64,000 nt of DNA from positions 30,754,001-30,818,000 of the forward strand of contig OZ076409.1 of the NCBI GenBank assembly GCA_964187785.1, read 5' to 3'. The notes under the pieces are model-generated. The model was not told the DNA's origin. It was given only the letters and a program-made list of their open reading frames with translations, and did not search any database. This DNA comes from Amphiscolops sp. MND2022 (lineage: Eukaryota). A program made the translations under genes and the position numbers. Shown here piece after piece: positions 17,986 to 18,288 of the stretch (position 1 is the first letter of the stretch; every line of letters begins with the position of its first letter).

Positions 17986-18288
17986 ATGCGTTTTCTACAA
18001 GTCTTTTTCAGTGTTGTTTTATGGACGAGTTTCTTACTTTCGTTTATAGGATATGTTTTATGGATGCTATTTCAAGTTCCTTCCGAGTCAGCTGTTCCTA
18101 ACGCAACCAGTGTAACTACTGAAAGTCCTTTGACCGCATCACCTAATTTGAGTTTTCCGTCAGAGAGTGTAACCTACTGTTTGAATGGCGGTACATGTTA
18201 TATTCCAATAGATGTAGGTGTACTAGCATGTTTATGTCAGAAAGATTATGGAGGCAAGCGATGTGAAAAGTTTCTATGGTACCATTGA
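17986..18288 (+). CDS. Membrane-anchored or secreted EGF-family protein (100 aa; first Cys changed to Phe)
   Basis: N-terminal hydrophobic segment, S/T/P stalk with NAT and NLS sequons, S[F]PSESVTYCLNGGTCYIPIDVGVLACLCQKDYGGKRCEKFLWYH. Confidence 0.85.
   Translation: MRFLQVFFSVVLWTSFLLSFIGYVLWMLFQVPSESAVPNATSVTTESPLTASPNLSFPSESVTYCLNGGTCYIPIDVGVLACLCQKDYGGKRCEKFLWYH

Follow-up and report, generated by a model that had tools for sequence, protein, structure and literature searches.

Within the 64-kb window, which is the whole stretch of DNA analysed, a short open reading frame (17986–18288, forward strand; 100 codons, ATG to TGA) is a damaged copy of a gene shared by seven groups of Polintons; on balance, that gene is probably a captured host EGF-type ligand that would act as a growth factor activating a host EGFR. 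The frame starts 207 bases past the left terminal inverted repeat of a Polinton designated P2 and is the first ORF within it; this agrees with the original prediction, which placed an open 100-aa gene first inside the left repeat. The ORF carries the motifs YCLNGGTCY and YGGKRCEKFLWYH, and divides into a single hydrophobic segment (residues 6–29, 18001–18072; helix 2–30 in the AlphaFold model), which would be either a signal peptide or a type II signal anchor, a stalk rich in Ser, Thr and Pro that has N-glycosylation sequons at residues 39 and 54 (18073–18153), one EGF module (residues 57–93, 18154–18264, spacing x7-x5-x10-x1-x8), and the C-terminal tail EKFLWYH (18265–18285). Export by way of the N-terminal run is predicted. 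No hydrophobic run follows the EGF module; with no C-terminal transmembrane segment, the product would be either a secreted or a type II anchored protein, as was originally proposed from the position of the EGF module behind the sole hydrophobic segment.

Codon 57 (18154–18156), the position of the first EGF cysteine, reads TTT (Phe), as first noted, so that this copy retains five EGF cysteines and lacks the six-cysteine ligand-type spacing. Pfam EGF matched the ORF at E = 0.0086, under the curated cut-off; an Atlas match to an epigen isoform cluster (0.87) is a lead only, and a protein homologue search returned six relatives, near-identical only. A search of the animal's own genome with the ORF yielded 596 candidates, and the ORF is not a chance frame because all 150 candidates that were scored matched and the position of the gene in the element is constant across groups. 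Since the first cysteine is missing and the carrier element has a deletion, the window copy itself is most likely pseudogene-like and non-functional.

P2 (17546–31596, forward strand) is a non-autonomous Polinton flanked on both sides by the target duplication AACGTA. Its left terminal inverted repeat (17546–17779, AGTAGT end) is 90.6% identical to the right arm (31374–31596). The EGF ORF is followed by ORF X (18276–18545, forward strand, 89 aa), which is the next gene after the EGF gene in group A and has no Pfam match. We regard the P2 insertion as decayed because a Gypsy LTR retrotransposon (19337–24707, forward strand; 217-nt LTRs, 99% identical; 1583-aa polyprotein) is inserted within it and about 9 kb are missing, relative to a full-length sibling, at an internal junction (28674–28677); the genes lost are the end of the minor capsid gene, the core protein, the major capsid, the protease and PolB. 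When all six frames of the window were scanned for the EGF motif, the only other gene found was that of Polinton P1 (11442–11715, reverse strand; group F, the group nearest the host ligand), in which a frameshift separates Cys3 from Cys4; an integrase (rve) was matched in P1. The same scan gave no EGF motif in P3, a third, unrelated Polinton with PolB at about 46700–61900. A conserved ORF of 197–199 aa lies near the start of P2 and P1 (18769–19330, forward; 10099–10698, reverse); it has no Pfam match and presumably resembles a DEDD-type exonuclease. An array of 106–108-bp repeats with long open frames (29137–29931) is longer in full-length siblings of P2.

We then surveyed the gene family across the genome. 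Merging three match lists and removing two host-gene rows gave at least 381 distinct genomic places with related EGF genes, distributed over seven Polinton groups (A–G) of 17–19 kb. Several Polinton core genes followed the EGF gene in 37 of 40 loci (10 kb read each); L068 had an exonuclease-like gene only, and L046 and L052 had no core genes. The gene order in the 37 loci was EGF, ORF X, exonuclease-like, two small ORFs, small membrane ORF, ATPase, two ORFs, integrase, minor capsid, core protein, major capsid and protease, in which minor capsid, core protein and exonuclease are labels that we assume for these Polintons. Pox_A32 (A32-like ATPase) and Peptidase_C5 (adenoviral protease) were found, and major capsid (jelly-roll)/DJR clusters were matched at 0.97–0.98. 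Inverted repeats with AGTAGT ends were present in 18 of the 19 elements traced to the far end, 16 of these 18 had an exact 6-bp duplication, and lengths ranged from 17.2 to 19.4 kb. PolB (PF03175 in L071 and L076) was located in the right half of the elements followed to the end; elements devoid of PolB, as suggested by the 10-kb stretches, were rejected on finding it farther along. The PolB ORFs of L071, L076, L080, L081, L084 and L190 encode 1109–1455 aa and are 33–59% identical between most groups.

Groups A–F carry an EGF gene of 89–109 aa in first position, with exactly 100 aa and Cys1 at residue 57 in groups A, B and D. Group G, found via protein P0096, differs in gene order: its elements measure 17.4 kb and have the 82-aa gene about 7.4 kb in, its capsid is about 31% identical to that of P1, and its PolB, with a tblastn similarity of about 22%, is encoded on the other strand at the left end. 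Inverted repeats bounded all six group G elements examined for them (17.3–17.5 kb), and core genes were present in 11 of 13 group G loci. Two reduced arrangements were also observed: L046 (G000:C12, about 4.9977 Mb) is a mini-element of about 1.24 kb consisting of left repeat, EGF gene, right repeat and 6-bp duplication, and L149 and L182 (G000:C5, 44.971–44.973 Mb) are two group G EGF genes facing each other 1.2 kb apart, with no core genes in the stretch read.

Many young Polinton copies of the EGF gene are intact. Six cysteines were found in 16 of the 17 copies at 95–100% identity, the sole exception being the window copy (nucleotide differences among sibling copies were taken from 8 of 13 loci). 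All 16 of the closest siblings have six cysteines, which bears out the original view that Cys1 is ancestral and the family six-cysteine, and leads us to reject Phe57 as the trait of a five-cysteine subfamily. The six-cysteine, ligand-type spacing is present in all seven groups.

Codon comparisons revealed purifying selection on the EGF module. Between the A and A2 types (L002 vs L019), the module (44 codons, Cys1 to end) differed by 13 silent and 4 replacement changes (dN/dS 0.05, Fisher p = 9e-8), and the N-terminal half by 8 silent and 11 replacement changes (dN/dS 0.39), so that the module is the focus of constraint, as had been predicted from its better conservation. Between groups, silent sites are saturated, with pN of 0.23–0.31 and 48–64% identity in the module, against 12–38% identity in the N-terminal half; the cysteines, the Gly, Tyr and Arg positions and the tail are invariant across groups. 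Among the closer pairs, ratios near or above 1 were obtained for the L039–L046 and L046–L061 EGF modules and for all B-type N-terminal halves. Because the pairs with ratios near 1 involve single, visibly decayed copies (L046, L061), selection operated while the elements replicated and not on inserted copies; the past selection originally proposed for the window gene therefore holds for the Polinton lineages and not for the P2 insertion itself.

The EGF module is closer to ErbB ligands than to the EGFs of Notch or clotting factors among PDB matches. Queried with a natural sibling that has six cysteines, the PDB returned 55 sequence matches, the first 23 of which were ErbB ligands, with epiregulin and neuregulin 1 at the top. 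Modelled (pLDDT 82) from a 50-row alignment that included vertebrate-type ligands, the module adopted an epiregulin/NRG1-like fold (TM about 0.75); on a 17-row alignment AlphaFold gave the EGF part low confidence (pLDDT 61). A PDB fold search with the module model found no match reaching E 0.001; among viral models, the best fold match was the 80-aa growth factor of rabbit fibroma virus.

We identified a putative donor gene in the same genome via P0023, a 237-aa type I precursor obtained by profile search. The host gene (G000:C5, 29.807–29.819 Mb; L135–L137) has six exons with GT-AG borders, five introns and 237 codons, and its precursor is identical to P0023 at 172 of 237 residues (73%); a homologue search with P0023 returned no protein besides P0023 itself. 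The precursor is laid out as signal, stalk, EGF module, transmembrane segment (113–137) and cytoplasmic tail, with Cys1 at residue 57, Cys6 at residue 93 and EKFLWYT at residues 94–100. This 57/93/100 register is common to the host precursor, the window ORF and groups A, B and D, in which the stop follows residue 100. The original prediction had set the window product apart from type I precursors; this stands for the missing C-terminal transmembrane segment, but in length and EGF register the ORF matches residues 1–100 of a type I precursor of the host. In the host gene an intron lies between Cys4 and Cys5 and the EGF module adjoins the transmembrane segment, two features described as marking ErbB ligand genes (passages of PMC1618406). 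In contrast, the Polinton EGF genes have neither introns nor a transmembrane segment. The host transmembrane exon is single-copy in the genome, and no Polinton gene was found within the 43 kb read around the host ligand gene.

The host EGF module was 48–70% identical to 11 types from its own genome, with group F (the P1 type) closest (70%, 31 of 44 residues), and 25–48% identical to 24 outside EGF domains, of which P0125, at 48%, is as near as groups A and G. A tree of 44 columns, made by a quick method, joined the host module and the family with weak support (SH-aLRT 80). Silent sites between the host gene and all Polinton types are saturated (pS 0.76–1.0), which suggests that the capture is old. 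Comparison of the N-terminal 56 residues with the host signal and stalk gave 5–7 identities in 56, with 2084–3801 of 5000 shuffles scoring equally well; since sequence similarity was not detected there, the N-terminal halves are tied to the host by length and character only. We infer that the gene passed from host to element, since the host gene is interrupted by five introns, among them the one between Cys4 and Cys5, and the element copies have none. The Polinton EGF gene was likely captured from the host ligand as a spliced transcript, cut before the membrane anchor. Judged by sequence, the tail is host-derived and not a viral invention, because the host precursor carries EKFLWYT at residues 94–100; a tail shared with the host ligand points to the receptor of that ligand rather than to a new specificity.

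Relative to P0023, the EGF module is the least conserved part of the host precursor (26 of 44 residues, vs 77 of 100 in the cytoplasmic part and 17 of 21 in the signal). Co-evolution of host and element is possible, in that the host module diverges from P0023 while sharing 31 of 44 residues with group F. When host exon 3 is read into the following intron (L136:1465–1540), stop codons occur five codons past the tail; a host transcript that retained this intron would thus encode a ligand devoid of the transmembrane segment.

Candidate receptors are present in the same genome: an L-domain exon on C3 and another on C7 had EGFR/ErbB as best PDB matches, indicating two EGFR-like host genes, although a protein search with one exon gave no full-length host EGFR at E ≤ 1e-10. 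Many outside family members that carry this tail share no more than 53% identity with their own-genome matches (P0017, P0022, P0029–P0096 and others), and five outside members with lost stops read on into Polinton ORF X, which indicates that the element family is not confined to this genome. A search for EGF-bearing Polintons in viral or metagenome contigs found Polinton genes at none of 30 loci. Four poxvirus-size contigs encode ORFs of 75–91 aa with the same layout of an N-terminal hydrophobic segment and an EGF module, and the short product of a giant-virus metagenome contig (L095:3663–4073) likewise has a hydrophobic segment at its N-terminus and an EGF module at its C-terminus.

We compared the gene with known viral and cellular systems. 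Like the growth factors of poxviruses (rabbit fibroma virus P08441, Yaba-like disease virus 15L, the sheeppox EGF-like protein and vaccinia growth factor), it is viral and intronless with a single ErbB-ligand-type EGF module, and like their 75–100-aa forms it has an N-terminal hydrophobic segment and the EGF module at the C-terminus. Vaccinia growth factor is described as secreted, activating EGFR and promoting metabolism, motility and spread (PMC13705586). Unlike the poxvirus factors, which belong to large cytoplasmic viruses, the Polinton gene is carried by an integrating element of 17–19 kb in an invertebrate-type genome and in hundreds of germline copies, and activity would be ascribed to it by analogy only. 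The EGF modules of the four poxvirus-size contigs were 32–39% identical to the host module and had a longer Cys3–Cys4 loop, which argues for independent captures by poxviruses and Polintons; these domains also fell outside the host-plus-family group (weak support), so that the Polinton gene does not group with the poxvirus family. The Polinton EGF gene is therefore most likely convergent with the short poxvirus growth factors. Insect nudiviruses (Esparto, Kallithea, Mauternbach) likewise encode an EGF-like module in an invertebrate DNA virus, as seen in fold matches, but their proteins have 190–319 aa and their carriers are large viruses.

With animal EGFR ligands (epiregulin, TGF-alpha, Spitz) the family shares the six-cysteine spacing, the Tyr, Gly and Arg positions and the hydrophobic tail; it differs from them in having neither introns, C-terminal transmembrane segment nor cytoplasmic domain, and in being encoded by a mobile element. 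Soluble EGF-type ligands devoid of a transmembrane segment do exist, as described for planarian Smed-egf-6 and -7 (passages of PMC4914847). The carrier elements resemble animal Polinton/Maverick elements (adintoviruses) in their AGTAGT inverted repeats, 6-bp duplication, protein-primed PolB, retroviral-type integrase, ATPase, protease and capsids. Accessory genes listed for adintoviruses in passages of PMC8502044 are PLA2X, gasdermin-like, cupiennin-like, Oncoid, Bcl2 and IAP genes; a term search of the main text of that paper gave neither 'EGF' nor 'growth factor', and the passages covered of PMC6431247 describe no EGF-bearing Polinton. Among the listings and abstracts covered by a literature search on growth factors and other cargo of Polintons, Mavericks or adintoviruses, none described such a gene; supplements or repeat databases might annotate such an ORF. 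Viral growth factors are known and Polintons are known; their combination was not found in the literature searched.

According to the reading we favour, the EGF gene, a standard gene of canonical 17–19 kb Polintons, would be a captured cDNA of a host EGF-type ligand. The N-terminal hydrophobic run is predicted to direct the product into the secretory pathway, for release or for display in type II orientation; loss of the transmembrane segment would permit signalling free of the regulated shedding established for type I precursors (passages of PMC4914847). By analogy with poxviruses, EGFR activation could stimulate growth of the carrying cell or of cells next to it and thereby aid the replication and integration of a DNA element. 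Sequence gives no distinction between agonist and antagonist. A receptor antagonist or biased ligand, which would bind the host EGFR and block or redirect its signalling, for example by dampening a wound, clearance or antiviral response, would show the same constraint pattern. The groups vary at receptor-facing positions, such as Leu, Met or Gln after Cys2, and PMC13705586 describes different signalling by vaccinia growth factor and EGF through the same receptor. However, group F retains 31 of 44 host ligand residues despite saturated silent sites, which fits mimicry of normal activity, and the poxvirus precedents are described, in the passages covered, as activating ligands; we consider antagonism unlikely. 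Rather improbable, too, is a surface adhesin or entry ligand: a type II EGF module, displayed by the infected cell, by vesicles or by a particle wrapped in membrane, would engage EGFR in order to attach, to be taken up or to target stem or germ cells, and not for mitogenesis. Such a role would suit the hydrophobic runs of 18–26 residues, which mostly stand behind a basic or polar N-terminus and often exceed the 21-residue host signal, and the predicted glycosylated stalk of variable length. But the gene lies outside the virion module, in first position in groups A–F and far from the module in G, the poxvirus-size contigs have the same short layout, and Polinton capsids would be non-enveloped jelly-roll shells.

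Two further explanations concern function and origin. The copies in P2 and P1 are broken and mini-elements such as L046 also carry the gene, as would be expected of a captured cDNA fragment that brings the element no benefit; this passenger reading is, however, largely refuted by the dN/dS of 0.05 between multi-copy types, by cysteines, Gly, Tyr and Arg positions and a tail that are the same in all groups while silent sites are saturated, and by retention of the gene through a change of gene order, and we hold it to be extremely improbable. A source other than the host gene, be it a ligand from another host or virus with convergent mimicry or a host gene derived from the element, would accord with the weak tree support, the saturated silent sites and the absence of N-terminal similarity. 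Against it, the 57/93/100 register and seven-residue tail are common to the host gene and P0023 and occur in none of the 24 outside domains, and the five introns, including the conserved one between Cys4 and Cys5, favour a cellular origin (passages of PMC1618406); this alternative appears very unlikely.

Whether animal Polintons are true viruses with an extracellular life is a standing question, and a selected, exported receptor ligand would pay only if the element manipulates cells at tissue level, as is so far known from large viruses such as poxviruses. A more far-reaching scenario, which we hold to be plausible though with the balance tilting somewhat against it, is a radiation of Polintons in one animal lineage equipped with a stolen, anchor-free EGFR ligand, which would have persisted while polymerase and gene order changed and would drive stem or germ cells into division while the host ligand module and the element copies co-evolve. 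If true, Polintons would thereby gain their first signalling virokine, and there would be evidence that the elements act on cells from outside like infectious viruses. Hundreds of germline growth-factor copies could also be a load on, or raw material for, the host's control of growth and regeneration. The favoured growth-factor reading is directly testable because ligand copies, likely donor and candidate receptors occur in one genome.

A ribosomal protein S5-like ORF was also observed in P2 (29949–30302, reverse strand) and in sibling Polintons (L076:7951–8406 and L080:6852–7496, both reverse strand), with a match to Pfam Ribosomal_S5_C at E = 1.9e-11. It lies near the right end of the Polintons on the opposite strand, and is likely a second host-derived gene kept in several Polinton groups.
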